From Microbotryum violaceum (taxonomy: Eukaryota): 64,000 nucleotides of DNA. The notes beneath the pieces were generated by a model. That model searched no databases and was not told the DNA's origin. It saw only the letters and a program-made list of their open reading frames with translations. Position 1 is the first letter of the stretch. Each line of letters begins with the position of its first letter. Positions 9,841 to 50,601 of the stretch are shown here, one piece after another. The position numbers and the translations under genes were made by a program. The stretch lies in NCBI GenBank assembly GCA_001244265.2, contig CDLV01000016.1, positions 496,001 to 560,000 on the forward strand. The letters run 5' to 3'.

Positions 9841-10429
9841 CCCGGGATGGGGAGTCCTGGCTATCCGGGTATTGGGCGACCAACCCCGAAACCCGCTGAA
9901 GGATCGAGGATTTTGGCGCGCTCGCGCGCCGGCCACGACACATGTAAGGATATATCCTTACACATGAGTTAAGGTCAATACACAACCAAATCTGTTCATC
10001 TTGATATTGTAACATCAACATATAACTATTTCTGAATGGTGTCTGCAAGGACTACATGATAGCATGTCTATTGCAAGACTTGTAGTGATTCAAAATCTCT
10101 GTGTCCTTACCGCACCTCCCGTATCCTTACCGCACCCTCGTATCCTTACATGTGTCGACATGTGTAAGGATACGCCCGCGCGCGCACGTGACATGCGTAA
10201 GGATACGCCCGCGCGCGCACGTGACATGTGTAAGGATACGCCCGCGCGAGAAGGTGCCATGTGGAACGACAGGAGGCGCACTCAGCCCGAAGCCTTTGTT
10301 CACATTTGTTCACCTAATTGTCCCCACACCGCCCATCGACGTCAACACCGTGGCACTGTTGAATTTTGCGAACCAGCCAATTGCGACCTCCAGCTTTGTG
10401 CCAGCAGGCACGGACTCAAATCTTTCATC

Positions 10430-13400
10430 AATGAGATTGCGGAACCGCCAACTTCCCGACCGTGACGCCGGGCCCTGGGCTCGGACTCGTTCTGGAGCTG
10501 GAGACCGGCCCCAATGGCGGACTCCCAAGTCGAGATTCAAAGTCCCAAGCATCAAAAGCCAATCAACGGTAGGAACCAATTGTCGAATCAGGAAAGGAAA
10601 TGGCCAGTCGGTCCCCGAGTCGGCAAACTCAGCGCATCCTCAGGACGATTCTGGCGACCTTCAAGCTGAAGCATTGACCTGCACGGTGTCCGCACCGCGG
10701 CTATCGAAATCCCCGACTCCAACAGGAGAATTTCCTATCACCGATCGTACAAGCGCCTTGCCTAATCGCATCAAGTCCGCAGAGGACTGCGAGGAGAACT
10801 GTGACAATTATGTGGACGATAAGCACAACGATCACAAGGACGACCGTGACAATGACTCACCTTGTTCCACTCGGCTCGCCCACGACACTCCCTTCCACCA
10901 CACCATCAAGCAAGAGAAGTCAACAATGCCTCTCCTGTGCTCCCAGAACAGCGATCCCGGTTGGCCGTCGCTGCGCAGTCAAAGCAGTGTTGAGAGTGTG
11001 AATTCCGCTTCTACCCTCCAAGTGGGCTCGCTTTCACCAGCATTAGCTCCGAACCTCTCCCGTCTAAGCGTTTCACAACCCAAGGCTATTCCAAAGGACA
11101 GCTCCATTCTTCCCAAGCATCAAAATACGACTCTTAAGCTTGAAGGTACGCCACATGTGTTGTCTAGATGGTAGGCCACCGGTAACGAGGCGAGGCGCGC
11201 GCCCGGAGGCTCGATTGGTTTTAAGGCAGTGGATTAGACTTAGTGTCTGAGTGGATTATAGTGTTGCGCGTGGGCCTATGCCTTCGCAAAGCAGAGTCCC
11301 TTGTTTATCTTTTCTTTAATCACTCGTTCCTCGACTATCGGTTCTGACACTGCGCTGCGCATCATTCTACCGCTGCCACCTATATAGGTTAGTTGTAATA
11401 TTTCAATCACTTGTTCCTCAACTATCGGTTCTGACACTGCGCTGCGTAACATCCTACCGCTGCCACCTCTATAGGTGGTGCACTTTTACATCAACATGCG
11501 CTCTCCCAGCCTGCTTAACAAACGGCTTCACTGGAAATTGATATTGTCCGCTTGCCTTTCTTAGTGTTGATGGTCAACTCTGAGGTTTCAAAGAAACCTC
11601 TCTTGGCGACTAACGTGCCGATGATATTTACGCTGTTGGTGTCCATCAACTTCACGGAGACAGGACATTGTTTCGTCTATCTACGAGATATTTTGGAAGA
11701 GGTTGCTGAGCTAACTGGCCTGGCTCTCCAAGGTATGCAAGACAAGATTAGATCGGTTCCCAAGCAATGTTGACAGGCCACTCAGCCAGTTACTAACCGT
11801 TTAATTCGGCGACTTATCTGTGTTTTTGTACAGAGGACTCCTGCTTCGACTACTGGGTGGTCGACGACGCGGCTACGTCATCTACTCACTCGACTCCATG
11901 TCTTGCCTCCTGCCGGTACGACCAACTCGCAGCATTTACTGCTGCGACCGACTCTTCGGACAAGGTTCTCGGGTTGACCGGCTTCGTACTCGACATCGAC
12001 TCGTTGCCAGCAGAAGCAACCATTACCTTGAGAGTGCGTATAGCTTCATGAGTTGACGGATTCTACGTCGTTGAGCTTTAGTCGCTGAGCTGACTCTTGA
12101 TTGCAAATGTCACAGGTCTACGAGCACATCAAGGCTCGACTCCCATTCGTAAATATCACTACAAGACCTCAAGGCCGGGTAGATGCCCCTGTTCCAAGTG
12201 GCGCACCTTCTGCTTCCAAGCACGACTTGCTTGTCAGGGAAAAGCGTGAAGCATCTCCAAGCGACAGGATCTCCGGCAATCTACGTCCGAACACCGAACC
12301 ATATTCAACGGATGACAAGCTCGTCAACAGTGAAGATCATGCGAATTTACCAACATATAGTGAAGGAAGGACAACGATGACGGACTTGATGCTCGAAGCA
12401 TACCCACAAGAGATTGTTCTTGATCCTTGGCGGCCCAACGGGACTTGGGGCGACGTCCTCATTGTTCGTATGGATCCAGGCTCGAGCGGTGGCTTGTCAC
12501 ACATGTGGGCTTTCTCGGCGTCATAATCTCGAACCGATTCAAAAGGGCGATGGAAAGGCCCGCGTTTGGATGCAAACGTCGAGTACAGCAAGTACAGCAA
12601 AAGACGTTGCATGGGCGTGTTCGTCTGTTGTGATTAATCATGCCCTGGCAAGCGTCGACCTCACACATCGCTGTCGACAGCGAGTAGGTCGAAGTTGTTT
12701 CAGGAGGAGACTCCACAGCTCGTCACAGGTCGCCCCAAGAAGGCTGCAACCCGCAAGCACCTCGCTCCAAACGTTGAGAGGCCTTCAGACGAGTTACCGC
12801 CGTGTCCAATCACAAGCTGTAACGGACCGATGAGGCACATCCTGTGCTCCGCTACGATTGCCGGAGGGCAGCGTGAGGAATGCCCGGGGGAAATATATAT
12901 CTGGCATTCAGGGTACCATTTGCATCCTCCGCCTCTGGTGTCGCGTCCGTCCCCGCAACATCTGGAAGAGCTGCAACAATTGCGTAAAGCCGCTCCACAA
13001 GCATCGGCCGCCGAGCTGCGCATGGGACAAATGTCCGCATTTCCGCAGGACCCTCGTCATCGGCCGTCCGCCTCTGAGATTTGCCCTGTATTCGACAGCA
13101 TTCTATCAATATCGAGATACGCACCAAGAGTGGGCCACAGTAAGCGTAATGGAGCCCTGCCCGACACGTTGAGGTCAGCTATTGAAGCTGTTGCCAATGC
13201 CGGTTGCCTCGCGTACATCGAAATACCGGGACAGCGCCAAGGGCAGCCACTTGCCGAGCAAATACACGATCCTGACCCTCGGAAGCAACCCAGGAACGAT
13301 GGGTCGCGGTCGAAGTCGAAGATCATCTCCAATTCGCTAACCGACTCTGAGACGTCATTTGGCATCCAGACTCCTCAGATGAAAGCGAGGCTCTCGGAAA

Positions 13401-16400
13401 CGATTGACGACCGGCTAGTCGAAGGCAATTTGGGATGGCCTACCGACGCTCACAACACCTACCTTCACGACAATTGGGTGTTGCTCGCCACGGTCTGCTA
13501 TTCGCCAAGCGCTCGTCGCTGGTTTCCGACGCTCCTGTACTCCGTCGGCAACCACGAGCGATCGGGCTTCTACCGCCGACACATTCCAGATTCTTGACGA
13601 TGCCAATTATAGCGTGGAGGACATCGTCACCGGAGTCACATTTGTTGTCGATTATTCAAGCGCGCAGATTTCGGGTCTTCGCCAAGCCATTTCGGATTGG
13701 TACGTGGCACGCAAGACCGCAGATGTGGGACGCTTGAACGTCACACCCAATCAGGTGTCACAGTGGACTGCAGAGGCTATTCAGATTGGCGAGAAGGCGG
13801 CAAGCGGGTGCGCCTTTCACTTCATTGAGCAGGTCAGGAGGTTCGGGGTCCGACATCTCAGTACGCAAACGGAGCGCGAACGATTTGCAATGCTGGTCAA
13901 CACCATGCGCAACGCGAAGTCCCATGCATCGATTGAGTCCATAGCAAAGCGCACAATCGACGAGTTTCCTGTGTCAGAGAATTGGATCAAATGGTGGACA
14001 CGACCGGCGATTCGAAATGTGGTATTCAAGGAACTCAATGGATCCGCAGAAAGATGCGTGGCTACCACAACAAATGCGGTGGAATCTTCCCACTGGCTCC
14101 TAATCCATTCATGTGGTGGCGAACGCTTTGGACCGGTGGAAGGGGTGATGCGACTTATCGACTTCGCGAAAATGACAGACCGAATTGAAAGTCATGCGAC
14201 CGGTAAGGCCCTGGCATAGCGTTACCACCAGCCCATTATCCTCATCTAAAACCATTCTCGCCTTTGCTTTGAAAGCAGACGGCTATGTCAGGAGTTCCAC
14301 TTATCACGAGCAAGGCAACGTCCGCGCTCATATCAAAAAGATCAAGTCACGCAATCGGGTACCTTCATCCTACGTCAGTGACGCCAACATGCCTGAGCCT
14401 TCGATCTCGTTCGCTGCACCTGCTCGTCTAGCTGGCATCGGGTTTTCTGAGTCACCACAAGGACCTTCAGACCTGTCAAAGGGTCCTGCAACACCACCAC
14501 TGAGCGAATCAACCAAATTACCTCCTTCCACGTCAAATCGTTCCCGGCAGCAACCAAAGAACCGGTCAAGGCAGGGCAATGAGCCCACTGCGCAGTCGAT
14601 GGCCTCCAAAAAGGGCTCAACACGTGTTGATTACCCCCACAAGCGCAAGATTCCTGACCCGCCGTCTGACGAGCATAGTTCGAGCGAATCATCAGACGAC
14701 GTTGGATTGACGCCCTCAATTCATTGCAATTCATCCGAGGCCATTCCCCCGACGGATCGCTCCATCAAGCTCCATCAAACGTCCAATTCCAAATTGAAAG
14801 GTAGTCCTCCCCGCTCAGATTTCAGCGGCCCATCGCGACGAGTCCCCGTTGTCCCTATGGCTGTGAGGGCGCTCAATGAAGAAACGGAGTTGTCCCAAAT
14901 ACGTACGCCTCCGCCCCAGACTGTTGACTGAGTGCAGAGGCGCTGAGGCCTGGCTGACGGAAATCCTGCTCTGATTTATCCTCCGTCTCACAGTTCTTGC
15001 GCAGCACAATGCACGAAATTTGGAAGCCCCCAGTGGTCGAAAATACCGGATACCTCGAAAACGATTGGCCTTCCTCTTGTTGGAACCTGAATCACAATCG
15101 GAGGCAAAGAGGACATGTACGTCCGTATTCGACATTCCCCTGTCCCTGGTTGCGCCCAAGTCGGAGTTGGCGCCATCGAAATCTGCAAGAAAGGTAGAAA
15201 TCGCCACGCCAAAACCTGCTTCGACGTCGACGTCGCTCGAGCGCACCAGTGACAAGCTCCCAGAGGACTCTAGATCTGCACCAAGGGTAAAATTCGCTCC
15301 GCCCAAGACATCGACGTCGACATCGCTCGGTAGCACGATTGTGCAGCTCCACGCAGACTTCTGGCTTCGATCAGGTGAAGACGGGCCAGCCGTCATTATC
15401 CAAGGCCCGTGGAGCGATAATTCTTGCTGGATTGACTCAACGCTTATCGCATTGCTCTCGGTCGCCAACGGATTGGAACCATGGCTGCAGTGTCTGGATA
15501 TCCTTAACACCCATACGGCCTACGTGATTCCTCCACTTGGCGATGAGATGGTGTTGAGGCTCCGCCCTCGATATTTGGCACTCGAGCTATGGGATGCGAT
15601 TCGCGAATACACAGCATTGGCTCGAAAGTTTGATATGAAACCGGCGGCGACCGCCATTGAAGCATACACACAATTACGAGAACGGATGATTTCCACTGTG
15701 GTTGGGATGTCGAAAGAGCGCGGAAGCCATTTTACAACTCCATTTAAGCGGGGAGTTATAGTAGCCCAGTAGTCAGTCAATCACTTAGCGAACCCCGCCC
15801 TCCCAAGACGATTAAAACTGGACGCTGATCATCACTTTTTTCGGCAGACCTGGCTCGAGACACTTCACTCGTTCACCGTCGATCATCCGGTTCTGCCAAG
15901 CGCTGTCACGTTGAATGATCCCGACCGAACTCTCGTCGAATTACATCTTCAACAAGCCGGGTATTGCACTGCCTGCAACTGCATTCAGATTGAGGTGTCC
16001 CCAAGACGACAATTTGTGGTTGACTGGCCCCTTCTCATCTCAAGTCTCCACCTGCCTTCGCATTCGCTGGAAACGTTGTCGGACGTCCTCGCCTCAATCG
16101 TTGGGCAACCGTTGAAATTGTACACAGAGGCAAAGAACTCAGGCCGTCGGCATCACAAGCGCAATTGCCCCGGAGGCTCTTACGTGCAATTCGTTTCAAT
16201 CACCTCGCTCCCCCGTGTGATTGTGATCAACATCAACAATATTTACCCGGAACATCCACTGACCCCAGCTGAGCTACGCTTCGGTGTTTCGGACCAAATG
16301 CCAGAGATGGTCTGGCGCCTTCGGTCAGGAGTGTACAACATCAACAATTCACATTTCGTTACGAACGAGACGGTTGGATAGGGCCAAGAGGCCGCATGCT

Positions 16401-16732
16401 ATCATTTCGACGCAATCAAAGGCTCTCTCGCTAGGCCGATAGGGGACAGGAACGCTGGCGGATTAGTTTCCGTTCTTTTCTACGAGCTAGAAGAGGAGTC
16501 ATTGAACTTCTTGCAAGCCTTCAACCTAATGCTAACGCGGCAGTGGCACGAAATGTGGAGTCTATACCATGAGCCCTCCGATCCTACCGATATCCGCATT
16601 AAAGTGTCAAGTCTACCACCCAAAGGGACTCTTGAAGAAGGACAAGGTGTCTGGAAGATGGAAGATGCGTCGGCTTTTTTTCATGAATGCGAGATAGTGA
16701 GTGTCGGGAACGCCAAAAAAGCAGATCAATAG
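10430..16732 (+). pseudogene. MULE transposase with a GCM-like Zn domain and a C-terminal USP-like (peptidase C19-type) protease domain; spliced and disrupted
   Basis: GCM-like: RCMGVFVCC...CP...CPITSCNG...C...HSGYHLHP. MULE core: TDAH, VVDYSSAQ, GCAFHF, TTNAVESSH. USP-like: DNSCWIDS, LPRVIVINI, GVYNINNSHF, YHFDA, VLFYE. In-frame stops at 12524, 12635 and 16379, and a frame break near 13600. Exon boundaries are approximate. Confidence 0.75.
11317..11476. repeat. Two-copy direct repeat of about 72 bp inside the MULE
   Basis: aatcactYgttcctcRactatcggttctgacactgcgctgcg...ctaccgctgccacctMtataggt occurs at about 11317 and about 11405. Confidence 0.85.
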
Positions 16733-17694
16733 AGCTGACGATGCTCTCCTCTTACAATGTTTTCCAGCGGTGCAGTGCTCCTGGAGGAAATCACAGTGGG
16801 GAACATTCATGTTGATGGCAAGTTTGACTCACAAAGTTGTGCCCCAGTGGTCCAGTGAAGTTTTGGCCTTGTCAATCACTAATGTAGTGTACAGTAGGGG
16901 CTATGATAGCGGTCAGCAATAGTATGTATAACTAAACTTAGTGCAAAAATGGGCATGGCGATACTTTGACAACCACTGGTGTGCGGAAAGAGTCAATTAT
17001 TCACCAGCAGCAGCCAGTGCTCTTTGCGCGCGAGCGTATCCTTACGCATGTCACGTGCGCGCGCGGGCGTATCCTTACACATGTCGACACATGTAAGGAT
17101 ACGAGGGTGCGGTAAGGATACGGGAGGTGCGGTAAGGACACAGAGATTTTGAATCACTACAAGTCTTGCAATAGACATGCTATCATGTAGTCCTTGCAGA
17201 CACCATTCAGAAATAGTTATATGTTGATGTTACAATATCAAGATGAACAGATTTGGTTGTGTATTGACCTTAACTCATGTGTAAGGATATATCCTTACAT
17301 GTATACAAGCCGCTCGCGCGCGCGGTCTAGGCTGTAACTTTGAATGTATGCCTGAGGTGTCGAAGCGCTATATTTCAAACTGTGGTGATTTTTGAAGCCG
17401 ACTCCGTCTCCAGAGTTCCGACTCAGCTTGCAGTGACCTGTCACCTTTCTACACCGATAACGAGCCAAGTGTAGCGATACAGCGATAGTCCCAGCCCAAG
17501 ATGCAACATATCTTGACTCAGCCGAGAGTGCTTTGAGCTTCACTGGACTCGTGGTCGAACTTCAAGAAGACAGACAGCCATGCAGCATTGAAGTTGTCAG
17601 ACGCCGAGTTCCGACTCCGACGTGAGGAATTGAGGTGACCGACGACGTGGCCCGTGTGCTTCCTGCTCGCGGGCTCTCGCGGGGTCGTCCCGCT

Positions 17695-26656: not shown

Positions 26657-29600
26657 ATGCTTGCTTCTAGCTCACGACAGGGATGGAGGTGTTCGATCAA
26701 GCCTTCATCAAAGACGGTGGCTACTGCCCATGACCATGCCCGCACTCGGACTCTGTCGTCGTCGTCATCCCGCTTGATCGCGCCTGCATCGTCGCATTGG
26801 TCCATCGCGGCCTCGCCAGGCAGTCGCGAGCTCGAGCAATCTGACGCTGCACCACCGAGCACGTCTAATCACGACAGAGTATCGCCAGGTCCAATAACAA
26901 CCTCACACCAGCGCGTGCTCGACCGCACACTTCGTGCGGCGATCCATGTCCAGACGGAGCTCCAGAACGGTGGCCCTTCGCGGCTACGCGGGCAAGCGTA
27001 TACTCAACACGGCTGGAAACGTACTCCCCAACGTAACAATGAAGCTCGTGCCGCGACCGACCTCAGACGGCGCTCGACACCGTTGTCTTCATCGTCTTTG
27101 ACTGCACCACATCGACGCAGTTTCACCAGCTCGGCCCCACCTAGCGCAGCCGGAGCATGGCCATACGCTGCGAGGCCGACGCTGGCCGATGATTCGAACA
27201 TACACGCGCCGAATTTGTTGCGCAACGTCTCTTTATCAGGGTCAGATCCTGAGCTGCGCCAGTCGGGGAAAGCTACTCTCCGAACTGGCACGTCGGCTGA
27301 CTACGACTCACGAGCCGATGTCGTCCTTTCACCGGGCTGCTGGGTCGAAAGCATGGAGTACGTGAGCTCTCGCTGCACACGAAGAAGAATTGTTGGGACT
27401 GACCTTGAACTGGGGCTTTGATTTGCCATGTAGCGGCGGCGTACCGACCGACGGCGTGTTCCTGGGCAAGTCGAACGAAAAACACGACCAGCTACTCATC
27501 TTGTCTTCGCTCGGTGTCGCCGAGTATCAAGCCATCAAGCAAGGCTCGATCACATGTATTGTGCCTCAATTCATCAGCTCTCCCCTCGCACAGCGATGTT
27601 TGCTGCTCAACCCTAGCGATCCAAGCGTTCTCCCGATCATTCAGAGTCTTCGCCAATTTTCCGTGCGCATCGAGGACCAGACGAGGGCCTTGATCTCCCT
27701 TGGCGCCCTGCGACTCTACGAGCTTTGTTTGTCACATGCTCAAATGCCGCACTCAATCGACTGCCGGACCGCACTCGACCTGTTGGGGTACTCCGGCGAA
27801 CACAAGCCCGAGGTGCAACTCGCAATTCATCGACTCATGATGCAGGATGCGGAGCACTTTATTGCGGATCCAGCTTTGATGCGTACGACGGGTACTTTTC
27901 AACTGCGACCCCACGAAGAAGTCGAAGTCTTGGTCACAGTTAGGTCGTGGGTTCGACAGCGCAGTCCGCAAATCATGGACTTTGTCGACCGAGCCGCGCA
28001 AGTCAGACAGCATAGTCTGCTCCAGGGCACTGCATCTCCATCGATCGGGACGGTAAAGCCGCTGCTCAAAAATCCTCTACCCGACGTTTTGTGGAACAAG
28101 GACGATCTACGCATTATCGACTTTCTTCGCTTCTCGGCGGAGACCCCGCGCGCACTCCAACGCAATCCTTACTTATCGACAACGCCTTCAATTATCAAAC
28201 TTGTCGACGCTGCTTCGGACCGCTGCGGCAGGTCCGGAGTCACTCGCAGGGCGTCTCAACAGGATCTGCCGCGGGACAAAACAATCGATCGCTTACATGT
28301 GTACACCTTCCTCGCCGAGCTTGGGGCGTTGCCACCGTGGGAAAACTGGGTCGTACAAGAGTCGAGAAGCTTGCTGCAGCCATGGGACACGGCCTCAGCC
28401 AGCCTTCAAAATGAGACCCAGTCGTTGCAGCGTTCTTCACAGGGAGCGCGAACGTCGCTTCCTATAATCGATGCTCTGGACGACGTTCGGCATGATTTTG
28501 GATCACTCAATGTCTATACAATAGACGACGCCAGTGCTCGAGAATTGGACGACGGGATTTCGATCGAGCCTATAGCAGCATCCCGTGCCGGATTGAAAAC
28601 GTGGTGGATCCATGTGCACATCGCCGACCCAACCGCACTTCTCTCTCCCGAGCACAGCATTTCTCGAGTCGCGCGCACGCGTGTGCAAACGGAATACTTT
28701 CCCGAGCGCACGTGGTCGATGCTCCCGAGCTTTCTCGTTGACGACGGAAGATTGAGTCTCGGCGCTCACAATGGTGGGCTTCAACGGACGATGTCTTTCA
28801 GCACTCTAGTGGACGAAACGGGTCGCGTTGTAGACGGTAAAGTCACCGCGGGTGTGGTGCGGAACGTAAAACGCTACACTTATGGCGCCGTCAACGCAAT
28901 ACTCGGACATGCAGCTGCGGATTCAAACCCCACCAGGCTCGAGTACCCTCTCTCAGGAGATGCTACACCTCACTCTCAACCCTCAGTGCATCTTCGCGAG
29001 ACCGACGATGGCGAGCTTGCCATCAATACGCCTGACCAAGTCAAAACCGACCTGGATGTGCTCCATAAGCTAGCTCGCGCTCTCCTGCGTCGCCGCGCCG
29101 ACAACGATGCACTCTTCTGGCAATTCCCATCGTCGAGCGTCACAGTGTCACCGCCACCCGACGCAACTTGGCAAACCTCTTCGCGGCCGACCTTCTACTC
29201 TCAATGTCCACTTGTGACCCTCCATCTACCGGCAGCACCAAAGAGTCTCGCGTGGTCGGCCACGCCACTGGGGTCTGCGCAGATGCTGGTATCAGAGGCC
29301 ATGGTTGCTGCCAACCGAACGGCTGCCAAGTTCTGCGTCGAGCGAGGGCTTCCAGTGCCTTTCCGAGTTCAAGATCCGCCGCGAGTCTCGTCAACGTCCT
29401 CCCTTTCCGATATACTAGCTTTGCGCAAGCCGGAGACTGGAGAAGCAAATGCAAGCGACATTGTGCGGCTCGGCATCGACTTTCTGCCGGGCAAAACTCA
29501 GGCCGAGCCAGGTGTGCATTGGCCCATGGGGATTCGTGACTCGAGTGGATACGTGCGCGTAACAAGTCCGCTCCGTCGCTACAGTGATTTGTTCTCGCAT

Positions 29601-30044
29601 TGGCAGCTCAAATCAGCTCTATCCCCGGGTGCTGTCTTGCCTCTGTTCTCCCGCGACCAGGTGCATGTACACGCCCGTGAGTTTGATGCGTCCCAAAAGC
29701 AGCGCGCAAGATTGTCAAAGAACGCCGAGAACTTTTGGGCAATGTACATCCTGCGACACAAATTTCAAGCGGCGCAAGCCTCGCAACGCCAGGGCTCAAG
29801 TCTCAACGACCAAGATCCTTACACCGCCTTCCACTCACGAGGACTGACCGCCCTCGCTTTGCGCGGGCCCTCTAGGAGCGAGATGGAAGGTTCGTGGCGC
29901 CAACCTGTGCTTTTGCGTGAATTGGGAGTGCGCGGAACCTTGATCTCTTACACGGCTGCGGATGCTATAGCCGCTGGCGACAGCCGCCCTGTCACTATCC
30001 AGTGCGTTGATCATCGAGTCTTGGTAGAGCCGCGAGCCGGTTAG
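26657..30044 (+). CDS. DSS1: RNB (RNase II/R family) exoribonuclease, likely mitochondrial Dss1/Cyt-4-like
   Basis: Catalytic motif YTIDDASARELDDGISIE, HVHIADP, SEAMVAAN, YVRVTSPLRRYSDL. Basic N-terminus; one intron near 27358-27433. The orthology call is an inference. Confidence 0.85.
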
Positions 30045-30171
30045 ACAGTCAGGTGATGCAATGTAAAGTCCCTTGCCTGGCTATGGCTAATGTGCCATCC
30101 GAAATGGGCACGATGAGGCACTTTCATGCAAGCACTGCTCGAATTTTGGCTTTGCAGAGGACAACAGTGTA

Positions 30172-31279
30172 CTACCTGGATAGTTCTGCCTCCGCAGGCA
30201 CAAGGTTACCGAAATGATCTCTTCGCGCTCGGCTGAGGACAAAGTGGCCGCGGGAAAACGTCAGCTACGGGCCCCAAGCTTGATGCCCGACGAGCCTGCT
30301 CACAAAAATGTGTAAGACAAGGTGACTTCCTGCACATCACGCATAAGAGGATCCTCGAGAAAGTCTTTGTCGATGAAGAAGAAGACGGGCAAGTCCACCT
30401 CTTCGCCGGCAAGGATGCGCTGCTCTTCAAAGCAAAAGCATTCGACCTTTGCAAAGTAGGGGGCGATCTGTCCTCGTGGCAATGGCTGTGGTCAGCACTT
30501 GGCGAGATGCAGGGCGAGCAACATCGCTCTGCCATAGTTTGGGGAAGAACGAAGAGATGGAGCCTCACGTTATTGGGCGTCACGTTGTAAGTTGCGATAC
30601 CGACGATATCCTCGGTCGAGTTGTTCTTGGCCCTATAGAAGGCCAAGGCAGTCTCGCCCGGGAGCACGCGTACTTCCTTTTGCTGAGGCGTGAACGTCCA
30701 CGGCAACGAATCGGACGAGTCGGCGTTGAACTGCACCCTGATGCGACGTTCGGTCTCGACCACAGGGATCAAACGCTCGGCGCCGAATCGGGATTTGTCG
30801 GTCGCAGGGGTGCCGCCATAGCCGGTCGCACTACAGAAAACGCGGTAAAGGGGTACGGCCAGATAAGATGCGGTCGTGACAAGTACGATTGTGGCCGAGG
30901 AATAAAGTAGCAGCGATCTGTTGCGTTGTTGGTAGTGGGCTTTGCGGGCATCGGCATACGCTTGGGATTGCTGGGCACTTGCGGCGGACGAATGCGAGGT
31001 GGAAGCGAAAGTCCGGTGATGCGGTGGTGATGCTGCCAAACGTCGCAACGACCACAAGCCGCTTGTCTCGGTCACGAATGCCCGATTGCTACGAGAAGGG
31101 CAAAAACCCGTGCTTCTCTGCTGAACCCAGCTATCGATCGCGAGGTGTCTCCGAGTTGTGCTCGCGTATCGGCTGCCGGCGATGCTGCTCGTACCCGTCC
31201 AGGAGGCGACCGATGCTACTGCTGTCGAGCACCTTGTCGATAGCGGTAATGTGCTCACTGCGCAGTTGCACTTGAACAT
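30172..31279 (-). CDS. COX11: Cytochrome c oxidase copper chaperone Cox11 (3 exons)
   Basis: SYLAVPLYRVFCSATGYGG, LPWTFTPQQKEVRVLPGETALAFY, YFAKVECFCFEEQ, VTLSYTF; the last exon ends at a TAG at 30172-30174. Confidence 0.97.
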
Positions 31280-31395
31280 TCCTGAGTCGAGTACAAAGTA
31301 AGGGGGATGGGTGCGAACAGGTGCCTAATACTGAGGCGAAGGGCGAAGGTGCGCGCGGGCTGCTGGGGTAAGAGGCTAACCAGGGCTAACCAGGG

Positions 31396-35970: not shown

Positions 35971-38900
35971 ATGGCGGGTTCGAGGAGCAAAGGCAAAGGT
36001 GTGCTTCGACGTACGGTAAGCTTCGAGCTCTTCGCATTCGCCGGTCAACGTCATCCGGGCCAGCCGCTGTCGACGATTGCTGATCCGGTTACATGACCAA
36101 TCTTCCATTCGCGATCGTTCCTACTTTCGGGTGTGTAAGAAATTCTAGATCGAGCTACCAGCCAAGCTACGGACGGAGCTCGAAGCGCTTGGCTCACTGC
36201 CACAGGCACACACGCACAAGTCACGCAACGAGCGTCGGAAGCAGCTTAGGACCCACAAGCAAGCCCATTCACCGCCCTCGAAGCTGGAGTATACACCGAG
36301 CAACACGGGCTTTCCTTCGCTGGATCAAAAACGAGCAAGCGCCGATGTACCAGCGACGCGTGCGATCAAGAAGGCGCGACGAGCCCCCGCAGCGAGTCGA
36401 AGTCGAGGTGCCGAGGAACTCGTCGATACCGCAGCTCTGTCTTCATCGACTTCTAGCGCAGCCCATGGCACCCCCCAAGCAACGCGTCGAACGCCTCTGG
36501 AGAAACTTTTATCCAAGCAAGAGAAGAGGGATTCCGCGCCCGATTTGCATCGGACTAAACCTCGTCTCGTGTCGGTCGAAGATCGTGAGATTGCCTGGCT
36601 AGCAGCCAAGCTGGGGATCCATCGAGACTCCCCAATCTCTCGTGGGGAGCGCAGCAATGTGAAGAAAGAGTTTGAAGAAGACGGTTTGGGAGGTACGTAG
36701 CTGGGATTCAGCAAACTTAATTCCGTTGGCACCACCCAAGGCATCTAACATCGCCCCGGCTGGGCTGTCATTGCCCCGGCCGTCTGGTCCTAGATCTATT
36801 CGAGGGTCTAGAAGATCTCGAGGCGGCAGCCTTTGGCGAAGGCGCAGCATCGAGCAAGGTAGAGTTGTCTTCATTATCTTCCTTGAGCGGTGTTATTGGT
36901 GCTCACTCAACTGTGGTGAGGTTTGTCGAGCTGACGCAGGGGAGCCCTCTCGCTGCCCACAGCACGCAAGCACCCAGACCGCTAGCGAAAGCGGTTTCGA
37001 GCACGAGGGTGACGTTCACGAAGACGTAAACGAACGACTTAACGATGGAACAGAATCCGAAAGCGATGGAGAGAGCTTCGGCGAGAATAGGGACGTTATC
37101 ACGCAGTGGGACGTCACTTCTGCCACTGTCGCTTCAGACGAGTTCTCATCGGGATCTAGCATGAATGCGGCCGGTCCTGCGCCACCAGCTCCGACAGCCC
37201 GCTACGTCCCCCCACAACTTCGCAATCTCGCGAAGAATGTATTACGTTCAGTTCCCGTGTCGACGCCCGTGACAGCACCTCGCCGAACGGATGAACCGCC
37301 AGCAGACTCTCGGATCCGGCGCCAGTTACTTGGCCATCTGAACCGACTCTCGAGTTCGAACATGATGCCTATCATTGATGCTATCAGTGCGATCTATGAC
37401 ACGAATCCCCGAGCGCTCGTATCGAATGCTTTCTCGTCACTGCTGCTTGAAACGATTTCCACTCGAGACAATTTGGGCGACCAGCTTTTGATCACGTACG
37501 CAGCGCTCGTCGCGGCCATGGCATACGTAGTGGGACTTGAACTGTCGGCAGGTGTGGTCTCCAAGACGATCGAACTATTTGACGCTTCGTACAACGAAGG
37601 CACAGACACATCGTCAACTGAGCGTCCACAAGCTCCATCTCAACCTGTCGCTTTCGAGGGTCGGCCTGGCAGCAAAACCTGTCTCAACCTCACAGCATTC
37701 TTGGCGGAGCTTTACAACTTCTCAGTCGTAGGGTGTACTATCGTGTACGATATCATCCGGTTTTTCATCAAGAATGGTCTAGGGGAACTGGACGTCGAAC
37801 TCTTGTCGAGGTTGATGAAAAGTGAGTTGCGACGCTCGTCTCGGGTTGCTCGTTGCTGCGCGACTGAGTGTGCAATCTTGCTGGGATTCACTTGCCTAGG
37901 ATCTGGTTCACATCTTCGGCAAGACGATCCGAGTGCTTTGAAGGAGATAGTTGCCCTTGTTAAGGAGCAAGCCGCTTTGAGTGACGTTAGTTCGAGCATG
38001 AAGTACGCCCTCGCTGCTGCCACTGCCACGGCGCATCGAACGCTAGAAAACTGACCGGCTAAACTCTGGTGTCCCAGCTCACGGACCAAATTCATGCTCG
38101 AAATGCTCACCGACGTCAAGAATAATAAGCTCAAGTCTGATTTTGTTGGTACAAATGACGGCTATTCGAGTCTGAAGAAACTCATAGCGAGCCTAGGGAA
38201 GATGAACTGTGAGCTTCGTTCGTTGACGATGCGACGCCCTTGTTCTCTCGAGCTTCACTGACGCATGTTTGTGTAGCGTCGTATCATGAACCACTACGGA
38301 TAACGTTATCGGATATTCGCAACAGCTCATCGAGGGGAAAATGGTGGCTCGTCGGTGCTGCTTGGGCCGGGATTGCCGAAGCAGAGGTAGACACGAGTTG
38401 CGCCGGACCGCCCGGGGGCCAGCGCAGCGTCGGTTTGGAAGACGGCATTCTCAAGTTGGCGCGAGCGCATGGGATGAATACCGACGTTCGACGGACCATC
38501 TTCGTGATTCTGATGAGCGGAGAAGACTATGCGGATGCGTGTGATCGACTACTTCAGCTCGGTCTCACGGATGTGCAGCAACGCGAGATCGTGCGGGTTC
38601 TGCTACGGTGCAGCGGCAATGTGAGTCCACCATTCCCGGGTTGAAGCCTCAAGCTTGAGGCCTGAGCCATGCGCTGATGCTCGGATAACGCACCGACCCG
38701 TTTGTAAAACGCGCAGGAGAGGCGGTACAACCCGTACTACACCCTGGTCTCCGCTGAACTTGCGAAACGGTCGCATGGCTTCAGGATCACGCTTCAGTAC
38801 TGCTTGTGGGACTTTCTCAGAGAACTCGGAAAAGACAGCGTTGGCCGCGAAGAGTTGGTCAATTCGATTGATATGGATACCACCGGTGGGACGGTCTCAC

Positions 38901-41947: not shown

Positions 41948-42213
41948 TGTAAGGCCAGTGGCCTTACAGAAGGATCGCGAGTACTGGACCGATCGACTCG
42001 TCGTATTCGTTGTCCTTGAAGAGGTATTGTAGACTGTATTCTGGTTTCAGGATCGGTTCGAATGAATGTGTTCCTCTAAGAGGGAGAGAGAGGACCCAGA
42101 CTGAACTACACAAAAGGGGGAAACCGGCCAATAATGGTCCAATATTCGGTTAACCGGGTTTCGGCCAGATTCAGTCGTTGGTCATGCGCGTGCGAGGCCG
42201 CTCGGGCCTCACA
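41948..42213 (-). repeat. 3' LTR, 266 bp
   Basis: About 3 substitutions relative to the reassembled 5' LTR; adjacent to the PPT. Confidence 0.95.
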
Positions 42214-45200
42214 TCCTCCTTCCCAAATCCAATTTGATTGGATTTTCTTCAGTACGGGTGGCTCCTGCCTTTGCCTTTTGACCTGGGCAAGAGTTCGCGT
42301 CGTTCCGTGTCGAGCTGTGTTGTCGCGAGCTTCGCCGCGGCTGTTCTCGTCCGGATTTGTTCGAGCTTGAGGAGAGCTTCGCTCTCCTTGATTTCGTCTG
42401 AGATGTCGAGCATGCTGCGATCGTGTCGCACGCGTTGCCGTTTTCCTTCGACCTCTTGGTCCCGTAGTTGTCGACGGTTGAGATGACCCGTTTCAGCGAG
42501 CTCTGCGCGTTTTCGTTCCTATTCAATGGGGTGTTCATACTCATCTGGTCAGTCGCGTCCACGTTTGTTTTCGCCGCGACTGCATGTTCCTCCTGTCTCA
42601 CAAGAGCCTCGAAAAGCGTGATTTCGTTGACTGCCATGTGCATGTCCAACCATCGATTGAGTGGCGTCTTGTAACCGGCGTGGTATGCGTCCCATAGGTC
42701 GCGGACCATATCGTCCGTCGTTTGCAGAGTGTCGCTGCGTTCGTTTTTGTTGTCGCTATACTTGACATGGTATCGGAGGCCGGTCCCGTTTCGGGAAATG
42801 TTAATCACGTTCTTGATACGTGGAGGGGGGTTGCGCTCCCCGAGGCCGGACTTGGCCGGGGCTTGACGGTGGTGAAGGCGTAAGATTTCGCTCCATTCTT
42901 CACGGTTCTTGAGTGAAGCCACGGTGATGGATTTGTCATAGCTAGGTTCATCGAAGTCGGGCGAGGGACTCCGTTGGATGGGAGCCGTCACCTGTTGTTC
43001 TGGTTCGTCGGCGATTGTTTCAGTCACGGGTGCTGGTGCCGCTTGGACCGCTTCCGCTGGCGCAGGTGTCGGCTGTGTTGCACTCGAAGTGACGTCTTCC
43101 CCGATGAGGTCTCCGTATTTGCCGTATTCGATGTCGTCTCGGTTTTCAACTTCCATTTGTTGATCTGTCTGGATGTTGTCCGTCATTGTGACGCCGTCGA
43201 TCGGAAATAGTGGTTTGGGGTTGAAAAGGCGGTTGGGGAACCGGTTTTCGTCTGTGGCGACCCACTTCTTTACTTGACTTGCGTGAAAGCGGGGGTGGAG
43301 TCGTCGTTGGGCGTAGCGTGGAGAGAGTTCCAACGTATACGTCAATGTGGCCGGAGTGAATGCCACACATTTAAATGGGCCAGCCCAAGGGGGGGTCCAT
43401 TTGCGTGATCGGTCAGGTGCACAAGCGAAGTTCGCTGTGCGCACTAAAAATAATTCTCCTATCGCGGTCTGAAGCTGTGCGTCAGGTTTCCGCTTTCGGT
43501 CGGCAATGACTGCCTGTTCACCACGTGCTTTCAAGATATTGTCTCTAGCGCGTGATCGTCGTTGCATCGCTCAGTCAATCAATTCGCCGGCGGCAGTGCC
43601 GTCGGGAGGCCGTGCCCAGCCGGGTACGTTTTTCGGTGCGACAACTCGAGCTAGCTCGTAGGGCGAATACCCAGTGGAGGAGCTTTTCGTCGAGTTGATG
43701 CCGTGTACTACGAACGGTAGTTGGTCAGGCCAGTTCGTGTGCGTTTCGTTTACGATCTGCCTCATCATCGCGTTGAGATCTCGGTGCATCCGTTCTATGC
43801 GTCCGTTCGTTTGAGGATGAAAGCTCGTGCTCAGCAGTAGCGTAGTGCCTAGGCCTTCAAACATGGATCTCCAGAGATCTGGAGTCCATCGCGGATCGCG
43901 GTCAGACACAATCTGAAGCGGTATGCCCCAATGAGGGAACACAGATTGGAAAAACAACTCTGCGCATCCCTTCGCGGTAATCGTCTGCTCGCAGGGCACG
44001 GATATGGTTTCTCCGGTGAAGGTGTCAATCCAGTTACATAGGAATCAACCTCTTTTCCGTTCCATTGAGCTTTCACAAGTGGGCCTTGAAAGTCCACTGC
44101 GATCGTCTGTCGCGGACCTGCCGGTATTGGCATCGAGTGCGGTTGCCGCTGCGCATTTGCGTACCGGTCTTGGAGACTTGGCATGCTTCGCAGGTCTTGC
44201 AATATTCTTCGATATCTGCACTCGTAGTAGGCCACCAGTAGTGATGTGCTGCGTGAGCCAGCATCTTTCGGCTACCAGTATGTACTGTCATCTCGTGTAC
44301 GTGTTTCAACACGAGTTCTCGGACTTTTCGTCCGTCCACGGTGCCGGCTGCAATGCACAGTCGGTCGCCGTAAATTTCGTCATTCTGCCACAGAGCGCCA
44401 TCAGCGCTAAGGGTGTATCGATCGAAATCATCAACGGTGGTCACGATCTTCTTGAAGAAAGGATCGTTCAGGTAGTCCGTGGCTGCTTGCCACGTCCTGT
44501 CTCGGTGCTGAGGGCCAAGGTTCAGAGCTTGATCGGTGGGGATTCCACCTTCCTCCTCGAGTCGCGCAGCAATCGCGTTTTCCTTGCGCGACATTTTCTT
44601 CGGCTTAGGCTTCGCCACCTTCGCCTTCGGTGCTGTCTCCACCGCTGGAGTCTTGGTTTGTTCGGTTTGTCTCGGCTGAGCGAGACGACTACTGCGTCGG
44701 AGTGTTTCGGTCTGCAGAGACTGCAGCCTTGATCCTAGTAGCAAATAATCGTCACGATCATGTTCCGTATCGAGATCGTCAAGGTTTGGGTCCTCATACG
44801 AGTCGCAGACGTTGTCATCCTCGTACTGGCGGGAGAACATGTCAGGTGTTTTGTTCCAATCGCTTTCGATATGTCTGATGACAAAATCGAACTGGGATAT
44901 GAAGTTGTAGACCCGTGCTTGGCGCTCGTTCATCTGTCGCGCCGTTAAAAAAGATGCTAAAGATTCATTGTCGGTAATCACTGTCACCTTGCGGCCCAGA
45001 AGGATATTGTGAAACTGCTGAAAGCCTTCAAAGATCGCAAGGAGTTCAATCTCGTGCGTTGGATAGCTCAACTGCGTATTTGTCAATTTTCTCGAGTGAT
45101 GGTAAACCGGGAGAGCGTTCCACCAGTTTTCACCGTAAGTCACACAAGCAGACGTGCCGACTGACGACGCGTCGCATTGTAAGAAAATGTATTTGCCCGG

Positions 45201-46937
45201 AGAAGGGTTCGTCACTGGCTCCGTAGGTGGCGCAGACCGATGAATCGGGTCCGTGTCCCTCGGTGCAAGTTCTTCTTGACGAATAACCGTCAGCTGTCGG
45301 GCATCATCGATCGCCTTCTTCGTTTCCTCGAAAGCGATGTCTTGCACCGCGGACCAGGTCCACGGTGCGTCTCCAACTAAGTTGGTCAGGGGTGCAACTA
45401 TCTCGGCGAGATGTGGGAAGTAGCGACTCGACCACTCAACGCTCCCAAGGAAGCGTTGAAGTTGCACTTTCGTCGTTGGTTTCGCGATTGTCAGGATCGC
45501 ATCTTTGTGATCCTGGGACATCCGAATTGTACCGAATTGACAATCCATTCCCAAGACTTCAACCCACTCGGGGCATACTTTCAGGCTCGAGGTGCTGAAG
45601 CAAAGCTCATGCACTTGAGATCGTACGAGTACGCTGACCGTGTGGTCTCGAATCTCCTTCCATGTGTTACCGACGACAAAGATGTTGTCGGCGTATGCCT
45701 CCATTTGTTTGCCCAGAAGGCCCTGGTAGACATAGGAGATCATCCGCGCCAGTGTGGCGGGGGAGTTCGTGTCACCCTGTTGGGCAACGGGTGTCGTGTA
45801 CACGCCGTGGATTGACGTAAATGCGGTCTTCTAAACGTCTGACGGCTTGATACGAAGCTGTTTAAAAGCTCCTTTCAAGTCGAGTTCGACGTGGTACTTG
45901 TTCGTCGCGATGCGACTACGAAGGTAATCCGCATCGACCGCCGGAATAGACATTTTCACCGTGTTCGCATTGCGAGCACGAAGATCCACCACCGGTCGTG
46001 CCTTCCCATCTTTCTTGAGTATAGGCATCATCGGGTCGGCATTCTTCGTCGAAGCGGGGATCCAGAGACCGGCTTCAACATGTTGATCTTTCAAGGTCGC
46101 CCACTTGTCCATCATCGCGTCAGCTACTTTGTAGTGTCGACGTGGTCGAGGTGGATCACTCTTGTCGATGTAAGGAATCTCGTGCATGACTGCTCGCATC
46201 GGTGGGAAAGGGAGTTTGTCCCCTTCGCCGATGAAGATCTTTACAAACGTGAAGAGCAACCACATTTTGTACCGGTTCTTGTCTTCTTCAGGTTCGTAGT
46301 CAGGGGAGTCTTCCTGTCCCGTCGAAGGGTACACAGGAATTGTTGCTCGATTCTCCAATTCGCGAATTTCCCTTATTTTCATCGTCAGAGTATCGTCCAT
46401 CGTTGTCATGCTTCCAAAGTGAATGACAACTTCGTCGTCGTCATCCCACTCGTCTTGATCAAAGTCATGTGCTTCGCCGATGTTGCGTTGCAGTTTGCTC
46501 TGAGCTTTGATCGGAGCGTGGCCTGTAGCTTGTCGCTTCTTCTGTCGAGGGCGAGGAGCTCGCTCGGCCTTTTTGACAGGTGTCTCTTGAATCGGATCTG
46601 GCTGTCTCGAGACAACCTCATCAGGATTGAATGTGACCACGCAATCGTACTTTCGTAAGAAATCATCTCCGATGATGACATCGTAGTATACGTTCGCCAC
46701 CTCGAAACGTTGGGGTTTTTTCACTCCTGCGAATTCTATGTCTAGAATGCAGTAAGAGTTGACTTTGGATCGGGAGCCCTTTGTTCCAAGTCTGAGGGTT
46801 TGCGCCTGATCGTACATGTGAATCCGCGCGCCAAGTTGCCTTGGAATATACGGTGCCACAAAACACAAATCAGCGCCTGTGTCGACACACGCGTGGAAGC
46901 TTTTGCGTGTGTTCAGGGTCACGGGATGAGGGCGTCG
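42209..46937 (-). pseudogene. pol: Gypsy pol (protease-RT-RNase H-integrase), disrupted
   Basis: VDTGA protease; RPVVDLR and LDLKGAFKQL; QQGDTNSPAT; YADN in place of YADD; CDAS...EIELLAI...TDNESL RNase H; HHCC finger; VSDRDPRW and HPQTNGRIER integrase. Stops at 45831 and 43571; frameshifts near 44000-44150. Confidence 0.92.
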
Positions 46938-49697: not shown

Positions 49698-50601
49698 ACG
49701 TTCGCTTCTGTTGTCGGCGATGGTATCTTCAAGTATACGAGGGTTAATTACGTCCTCTACTTAAAGCAGTTACTTCGTCCAGCGAAGCAACGTGGTCGTT
49801 TTCAGAAAGTGAGGTTTGTGCCTTTCCACTCAAGAGTAAAAATTGACACGTCTCGCTACTCACGCCAACACTAGGTCGACGCTTTCGCAAGCGTGGGTTC
49901 GTTGCAAGCAACGGGGTTTCCTGTCTGTTTTCAGAGCAGATACCTTTTTCAAGGCAGACCGCCTTCTTCAGGGGATCAGTACAGGAGGTACTATGCGGAG
50001 TATCTTGAGACTGCTGGTTGTAAAGGTTGTCGATCGGCTTGTCCTCCAGCGATGGTTCGGTGTCGAGTTCGGGGTTGCTGAAGTCCAATAAAAAAGATGT
50101 AAGGCCGGTGGCCTTACAGAAGGATCGCGAGTACTGGGCCGATCGACTCGTCGTATTCGTTGTCCTTCAAGAGGTATTGTAGACTGTATTCTGGTTTCAG
50201 GATCGGTTCGAATGAATGTGTTCCTCTAAGAGGGAGAGAGAGGACCCAGACTGAACTACACAAAAGGGGGAAACCGGCCAATAATGGTCCAATATTCGGT
50301 TAACCACCTCTGGCTATATATATAAGCACGCTAAAAAGTGGCGCGCGCCTCCGACCCTCGCTTCCGCGCGACGTAGCCATACATGTTGCCCCACCTGCAA
50401 CCCGGGTTGCTGGATGGCCCGAGGACTAGGGCAACTTGCTAATGAGATTGACCTATTATTAGGGAGTACTTGTGCAGTCGCCCGCAGAGCTGTCTCTTCA
50501 AGCCTCCCCCCGCTCAGCGCCAAATCAGACCCGCCTCAGTTCTAAGACGAGCACCAACTATTGTAACACACAGTAATACATTCTCGGATTTGCATCAGAC
50601 A

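Follow-up and report, generated by a model that had tools for sequence, protein, structure and literature searches.

Element structure and gene layout

A stretch of 64,000 nucleotides from the fungus Microbotryum violaceum (positions 496,001 to 560,000 of contig CDLV01000016.1, assembly GCA_001244265.2; hereafter the window, numbered from its first letter) contains a Mutator-like element (MULE) of 7.4 kb at approximately 9930-17310, whose gene joins a transposase to a C-terminal domain with conserved Cys, His and Asp residues (Table 1). As the original prediction had proposed, this is a single MULE bounded by terminal inverted repeats (TIRs) and a short direct repeat. Its TIRs form arms of 277 nt with one mismatch only (10209/17033), four further bases pair on the outward side of the perfect arms, and an 11-nt direct repeat flanks the element. 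Both the long TIRs (tens to hundreds of bp) and the target site duplication (TSD) of ~9-11 bp that characterize MULEs are therefore represented by these arms and by the flanking repeat, which is a probable TSD. In a test on the two 40-nt flanks, a 10-mer was shared by chance in 22 of 20000 shuffles, and on the + strand of the 64-kb window the 10-mer core of the repeat occurs only at the left flank and at 17312. Between the flanking repeat and the perfect arms lie 8-10 imperfect terminal bases (10 nt left, 8 nt right), of which 9930-9939 are probably the imperfect outer terminus of the left TIR; the exact element ends are uncertain by 1-2 nt. Furthermore, an 11-nt subterminal word matches nine times in the window (expected 0.7), always within the two element ends. 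These repeats resemble the usual binding sites of transposases and are predicted to function as such.

A tblastn search with P0009, a protein of 1561 aa from M. silenes-dioicae, covered residues 1-1561 in six pieces at 11570-16729 of the + strand with 86-98.5% identity. The encoded domains follow each other in the order of a conserved N-terminal region, a Cys/His finger, a D/D/CxxH/E core, a disordered Ser/Pro-rich linker of ~300 residues, a Cys/His/Asp domain and a conserved extension of ~80 residues. All sequence features named in the original prediction, namely the Cys box, CxxC, LPRVIVI, the His box, YHFD, VLFYE, the Cys/His stretch and the DDE core, were recovered on the + strand; motif coordinates were counted by hand along the translation ruler and cross-checked against stop positions. 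The description of these features as same-strand frames applies insofar as they share one strand and relatives carry one gene, whereas in the window the frames join only via introns and the copy is broken by five lesions.

Table 1. Coordinates of the element, its gene and the lesions of this copy in the window. X1, X13, X17 and X18 are sequencing runs, P0008 and the like protein models of relatives.
Feature	Position	Strand	Remarks
11-nt flanking direct repeat, left copy	9919..9929		longest direct word common to both 40-nt flanks
Left TIR	9940..10216		277 nt; 276/277 complementary to 17026-17302
Five subterminal copies of 11-nt repeat	10120..10240		inside and adjoining left TIR; 33-nt tandem units
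Transposase-protease gene, here pseudogene	11570..16732	+	tblastn of P0009
Intron 1	11731..11831	+	GT..AG joint 11730>11832 in X17, X18; absent from X1, X13
Intron 2	12034..12115	+	GT..AG joint 12033>12116 in X17, X18
Premature TAA	12524..12526	+	Ser in relatives, e.g. P0009; 12525 A>C in all four runs
Cys/His zinc-finger region, WRKY-GCM1-type candidate	12548..12925	+	ends in H-x-H
Premature TAA	12635..12637	+	Gln in relatives; 12635 T>C in X13, X18, X1
Predicted Mutator-like catalytic core	13445..14084	+	D 13445-13447, D 13650-13652, CxxH 13809-13820, E 14082-14084
11-nt gap, frameshift	13581..13582	+	+5 and +6 letters in X13, X1; relatives have four more residues
Intron 3	14202..14277	+	GT..AG joint 14201>14278 in X17, X18; matches models P0008/P0009
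Ser/Pro-rich linker	14278..15331	+	not alignable between subfamilies; internal 49-nt direct repeat
Predicted intron 4	14903..14993 (P0009/P0029) or 14923-15004 (P0008/P0010)	+	links linker frame to protease frame; gene models only
C-terminal Cys…CxxC…His…Asp domain, USP-like candidate	15332..16486	+	
Cys box D-N-S-C-W-I-D-S	15416-15439	+	Cys codon 15425-15427
1-nt gap, frameshift	15749	+	+G in X13, X17, X1; relatives read G-S-Y-S-S-P-V
Intron 5, inside protease-like domain	15772..15847	+	GT..AG joint 15771>15848 (X17); variant exon end in X18, contig 29
Internal CxxC	15965-15976	+	
H-x3-C	16151-16168	+	
L-P-R-V-I-V-I	16208-16228	+	
His box	16328-16357	+	His 16352-16354
Premature TAG	16379..16381	+	Tyr in all relatives; between His and Asp
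Y-H-F-D	16400-16411	+	Asp 16409-16411
V-L-F-Y-E	16472-16486	+	
Conserved C-terminal extension	16487..16729	+	conserved between subfamilies; alternative intron 16697-16767
Right TIR	17026..17302		277 nt; holds four copies of 11-nt subterminal repeat (17035-17122)
11-nt flanking direct repeat, right copy	17311..17321		

The copy in the window is dead, as its reading frame is interrupted by two TAA codons, one TAG codon and two frameshifts. The unbroken state is present at the first four lesion sites in contigs of the DNA runs X1 and X13. An additional in-frame TAG at 15770-15772 falls in intron 5 and was not counted as a lesion. An origin of the stop codons by a process similar to repeat-induced point mutation was ruled out, since one of the two TAA codons arose from a C that became A and the TAG stands where relatives have a Tyr codon.

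Most of the introns of the gene are spliced. X17 and X18, which belong to one study, were guessed to be RNA, with none of the runs on record as such, and X13, for which this guess was also made, resembled the DNA run X1 instead. Joints with GT..AG borders were found at five of the six introns discussed here, only in X17/X18 and never in X1 or X13, although the DNA runs compared are not from the organism of X17/X18 and intron-less DNA copies could also give such joints. Four of the GT..AG joints in the RNA-like runs match introns of the gene models. One of the five, the joint of the alternative 3' intron (16696>16768), is present in X18 and fits models P0012/P0014. An additional GT..AG joint in the RNA-like runs connects 14373>14462. 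As the contigs of X17 and X18 are short, a single transcript is not demonstrated, and depth differences along the gene in these runs, being those of contigs, are not interpretable.

The gene may extend further upstream. An open frame of 361 codons (10089-11174, + strand) connects the left TIR with a Ser-rich stretch, the segments 10457-10703 and 10899-11241 are covered by RNA-like contigs, and the M. saponariae relatives P0005-7 contain a long Ser-rich N-terminus. Thus, the gene may start upstream of 11570 and include further exons, possibly within 10400-11250.

Relatives and the transposase half of the gene

Word-seeded protein searches (E<=1e-3) retained 6 of 7339, 4 of 6425 and 8 of 8000 candidates, and a profile search of 1.84 billion representative proteins gave six matches, all of which are copies of the element. 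Apart from one fragment from Rhodotorula araucariae (P0022), the named matches are all gene models from M. silenes-dioicae or M. saponariae, distributed over many contigs or chromosomes. In metagenome scans, 151 pattern matches to the protease alignment and 245 to the transposase alignment were obtained, none of which was confirmed. Three intact models of M. silenes-dioicae, P0009 (1561 aa), P0010 (1513 aa) and P0029 (1623 aa), each contain the finger, the transposase core, the linker and the Cys/His/Asp domain in one protein, and the fusion that had been read from the decayed copy in the window is thereby borne out. P0031 (1412 aa) is a shortened relative model. In a second subfamily (P0005-7, P0013 and P0015) the C-terminal tail is 52% identical, and P0005-7 are without the transposase. 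The Rhodotorula protein, at 28% identity, matches the transposase with an E value of 3e-30 and, further along the same protein, the N-terminal half of the protease-like domain with an E value of 1e-4; both D motifs of the core are conserved and the Cys box reads W-x-H-N-S-C-W-L-D-A. As core and Cys box are thus joined in Rhodotorula as well, their linkage predates the split of these lineages.

In X17 and X18, a joint without GT..AG borders (10703>15088) skips 4384 nt and indicates a derivative that has lost internal sequence but retains the protease-like domain. The conserved N-terminal region (P0009 ~1-125; P0005 ~125-205; window 11519-12036) is retained even in transposase-less derivatives. 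It was modelled as strand-strand-helix-strand-strand at an unreliable predicted local distance difference test score (pLDDT) of 27-41, a pattern that is reminiscent of a beta-grasp fold and may serve as a lead.

The predicted core is accepted here as that of a divergent MULE, with which the TIRs, the duplication of 10-11 bp and the predicted D/D/CxxH/E layout agree. Language-model look-alikes of residues 255-800 in the Atlas were clusters annotated as MULE PF10551, ZSWIM1-3 RNaseH-like, FLYWCH and SWIM, with scores of 0.90-0.96 (0.95 for the MULE families). Like Mutator/MuDR (PF10551, PF00872), the element has long TIRs and a probable TSD of 10-11 bp, and its transposase has candidate residues for a D…D…CxxH…E layout downstream of a putative zinc finger near the N-terminus. 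It differs in giving no Pfam match at E<=10, and outside Microbotryum only the Rhodotorula fragment was found to be related.

The finger had been described in the original prediction as a GCM-like domain. This assignment is not supported by the GCM profile PF03615, which gave an E value of 2.2 and 8.7 bits where 25 are required, so that no stretch of the sequence passed, and the finger fits only the wider WRKY-GCM1 type. It is a candidate member of this class, which is known from the N-termini of MULE transposases (Babu et al. 2006, main text of PMC1702500). The R-E-E..G..H.G.H.H..P pattern of the finger is invariant between Microbotryum and Rhodotorula, and the Atlas look-alikes include clusters that combine FLYWCH with MULE. 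Pfam matches to 'Ustilago_mating', Sua5 and DUF1952 were below the cut-off and were taken as chance.

The C-terminal Cys-His-Asp domain

As predicted, the Cys/His/Asp triad of the tail is conserved among copies. The two 52%-identical subfamilies, whose linkers are unalignable and whose alignment starts only at this domain, have C32, C187/C190, H316 and D335 without variation, and the Cys box is found in Rhodotorula as well. The spacing from Cys to His is 284 residues. The order of motifs typical of ubiquitin-specific proteases (USPs; peptidase family C19, PF00443), with a Cys box, a zinc-ribbon CxxC, a His box and an Asp/Asn, is present and conserved in the family. In detail, the tail shares with USPs the succession of Cys box, CxxC, second metal-ligand pair, LPxV-type strand, His box, Asp and closing LFY, and differs in that the canonical G-N-T-C-Y/F-x-N-S and G-H-Y are replaced and in the lack of similarity at the level of hidden Markov models (HMMs) or profiles.

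The tail had been interpreted as a captured C19-type deubiquitinase. No donor gene and no stand-alone host homologue of the tail was found among the 1.84 billion representatives, and this part of the original prediction is not upheld. For the same reason it is highly improbable that the tail is a mere passenger, i.e., a host fragment acquired in the manner of Pack-MULEs without any role for the element. MULEs often capture host DNA (main text of PMC6446971), but core and Cys box are still linked in Rhodotorula at 28% identity, the triad is invariant across subfamilies whose linkers have diverged beyond alignment, and the domain holds a spliced intron of its own.

Two lines of evidence connect the tail with USPs. 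All named clusters among its Atlas look-alikes are annotated as UCH PF00443, the three best being unnamed clusters from Basidiomycota. In addition, a test with colinear ungapped blocks was conducted against giant-virus USPs, which were retrieved from IMG/VR via a degenerate Cys-box pattern and all of which (28/28) belong to Pfam PF00443. With nine hand-picked USP blocks the family profile of the tail scored 18.1, compared with -19.1 ± 7.9 for a column-permuted null that reached this value in 1/1000 cases. Blocks chosen automatically by information content gave 42.1 versus 14.6 ± 7.1 for nine blocks and 41.8 versus 18.1 ± 6.3 for six, each reached in 1/500 permutations. In the resulting placements, the Cys, the CxxC and the His of the tail coincide with their USP counterparts, and the LPRV strand is matched to the LPxVL strand of USPs, YHFD to W-x-F-N-D and LFYE to the closing AYxLFY. 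The same block test with 26 OTU domains (19/26 verified with Pfam) was null, with 71 and 172 of 500 permutations reaching the score, and hhalign assigned a probability of 0.1% to the alignment of the family with these domains. Moreover, the tail has no Pfam match to OTU (PF02338), and an Asp at -3 of the Cys is not conserved. The look-alikes and the block test are thus two independent leads that converge on USP and not on OTU.

Several results weigh against this assignment or against the gene structure. By the Atlas's own account, 4-10 of every 100 shuffled proteins attain 0.92, the score of the UCH clusters. Against 162 unrelated giant-virus open reading frames (ORFs), a harsher null, the scores of the two subfamilies were reached by 3 and 2 ORFs with hand-picked blocks, by 6 and 1 with nine automatic blocks, and by 4 and 4 with six. 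The corresponding p of ~0.01-0.04 indicates that the motif set exceeds chance only modestly. Pfam gave no family for P0001, P0003, P0004 and P0005 at E<=10, and neither phmmer (sequence) nor hmmsearch (profile) retrieved a match from the PDB at E<=10. The alignment of the family with the 28 USPs by hhalign had a probability of 0.5%, and a USP HMM (HMMER with --max) scored the real sequences at -0.7 and -2.2 bits, values that lie inside the spread of 200 shuffles. AlphaFold2 models from alignments of 7 and 12 rows had mean pLDDT values of 31.4 and 30.5, which are unusably low, and gave no fold comparison. For the transposase half, Pfam searches (E<=10) with the pieces of the window and with P0008, P0009, P0017 and P0022 gave no match to MULE or Transposase_mut. 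The partial Rhodotorula protein contains neither the E region of the core nor the His half of the tail. Finally, the joint of intron 4, which would bring the protease frame in line with the linker, was not seen in X17/X18, and the RNA-like contigs 22 and 27 read through it.

The identification of the tail as a USP is therefore only partly supported: it matches USPs by motif order and by its look-alikes, whereas searches with Pfam, PDB sequences, HMMER and hhalign were negative and membership in C19 is not demonstrated. These searches mark it as a domain that current family libraries seem to miss entirely. The same negatives would also be expected if the tail were a lineage-specific module unrelated to USPs, with another fold, from another papain-like family or as a non-enzymatic scaffold, in which the USP-like motifs had arisen by chance. 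All profile and HMM tests were negative and structure prediction was uninformative, no Asn/Gln of the oxyanion hole, located in USPs at -5/-6 relative to the Cys, is apparent, and the family is tiny (six matches in 1.84 billion representatives). Yet the look-alikes and the block test, with its residue-on-residue placement, agree on one family among thousands, the OTU control is null, and a CxxC lies between a Cys and a His 284 residues apart, as in USPs and unlike OTU, UCH or papain proteases. On balance, we consider such a module unlikely, though it is the most serious of the alternatives.

The disordered linker of ~300 residues between the two halves of the protein also suggests another function, in which a papain-like tail would act in cis, cutting the polyprotein within the linker and releasing the transposase and a second product, as proposed in the main text of PMC1702500 for polyproteins of OTU-bearing MULEs. 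However, no cleavage site is known, the linker shows no visible ubiquitin-like tail, and the deleted derivatives (P0005-7 and the one with joint 10703>15088) keep the domain without a transposase to release. In addition, USP, OTU and Ulp1 enzymes are isopeptidases for the tails of ubiquitin and ubiquitin-like modifiers. Cleavage in cis is accordingly an improbable role.

As a whole, we favor, with somewhat better than even confidence, the explanation that the element is a dead copy of an autonomous-type MULE family, confined within the reach of our searches to fungi of the Microbotryomycetes, and that its tail is a very divergent, USP-like isopeptidase within the MULE transposase that would serve the element.

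Genomic context, related systems and possible role

Ordinary host genes are located near the element, which thus sits in gene-bearing DNA. An RNB exoribonuclease (+), a Cox11/CtaG homologue (-) and a MIF4G-domain protein (+) are encoded within 27366-31324 and 36663-38054, and a Ty3/gypsy-type retroelement at 42209-49760 (-) includes reverse transcriptase, RNase H, an integrase zinc-binding domain, a zinc knuckle and a Tf2-like SH3 domain. Within the element, contigs of all four runs break at 11208-11497, with loose ends before 11208 and behind 11353-11497, and depth is raised at 11164-11615, where two 75-nt direct repeats are located (11315-11389 and 11402-11476). This region looks like a separate small repeat upstream of the gene that also occurs elsewhere in these genomes. 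In the M. silenes-dioicae models P0012, P0020 and P0021, pieces of the element are fused to reverse transcriptase and gag domains (PF00078, PF14223, PF07727), which points to nested insertions in repeat-rich regions.

Ulp1/C48 SUMO proteases are encoded by plant KI-MULEs and by Zisupton elements, which share with the element described here the combination of a cut-and-paste transposon with a cysteine protease that deconjugates ubiquitin or ubiquitin-like modifiers, to the extent that the tail is such an enzyme. Contrastingly, C48 enzymes have the order His-Asp-Cys, whereas in the tail the Cys comes first and His and Asp come last, and the tail has no Pfam match to C48. This family is named as an accessory domain of fungal transposons in the main text of PMC5751038. 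MULE transposases with a C-terminal papain-like protease of the OTU type are also on record (Babu et al. 2006, main text of PMC1702500); in these proteins a finger of the WRKY-GCM1 type precedes a Mutator core, and a cysteine protease of clan CA forms the C-terminus, an architecture that the element would share if its candidate domains are of these types. The tail described here differs from these in its lack of an OTU signal and in a motif order that fits USPs. Full-text literature searches returned no description of a USP/C19 domain in a Mutator element, and the word 'ubiquitin' is absent from the main texts of PMC5751038, PMC6446971, PMC1702500 and PMC12730594, although the supplements of the first two may list domain architectures of relevance here. 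Thus, OTU and Ulp1/C48 proteases in transposons are already known, and the putative USP-like tail on a MULE would be new.

Transposons also encode factors that counteract silencing, including VANC of VANDAL elements, SET domains in MuDR elements of Phytophthora and TET/JBP proteins in fungal DNA transposons (main text of PMC12730594). Like these, the tail would represent an accessory activity of a DNA transposon with the potential to counter host control; they act on the methylation of DNA or histones, whereas the activity proposed here would be directed at ubiquitin.

We hypothesize that the protein of intact copies, encoded by a single spliced gene of ~1500-1600 codons, has four parts, the first of which is the conserved N-terminal region. 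The Cys/His zinc finger would most likely bind the 11-nt subterminal repeats, and the Mutator-type DDE core would cut and paste the element, leaving a target duplication of 10-11 bp. From the conserved residues and motif order of the tail we infer a USP fold, a catalytic activity and a target: located downstream of ~300 disordered residues, the papain-like Cys-His-Asp tail may strip ubiquitin or a ubiquitin-like modifier from the transposase itself or from chromatin at the element. Such deconjugation would shield the element from turnover or silencing by the host, and would be the same kind of accessory function as in MULEs that carry Ulp1 or OTU proteases. In a more far-reaching form, which we put forward only tentatively and at rather less than even confidence, MULEs of the Microbotryomycetes would carry an anciently fused, third independent deconjugating protease of the ubiquitin family that is beyond the reach of Pfam, HMMER and hhalign and shields transposase or chromatin, and deleted copies that retain only the tail would be transcribed because the tail acts in trans.

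If this holds true, the presence of a third unrelated protease of the ubiquitin family would suggest that the removal of ubiquitin-like marks is a recurring need of the MULE superfamily and not a one-off capture. With a young, multi-copy family, transcribed relatives in a tractable fungus and intact copies in sequenced relatives, this idea would be directly testable.

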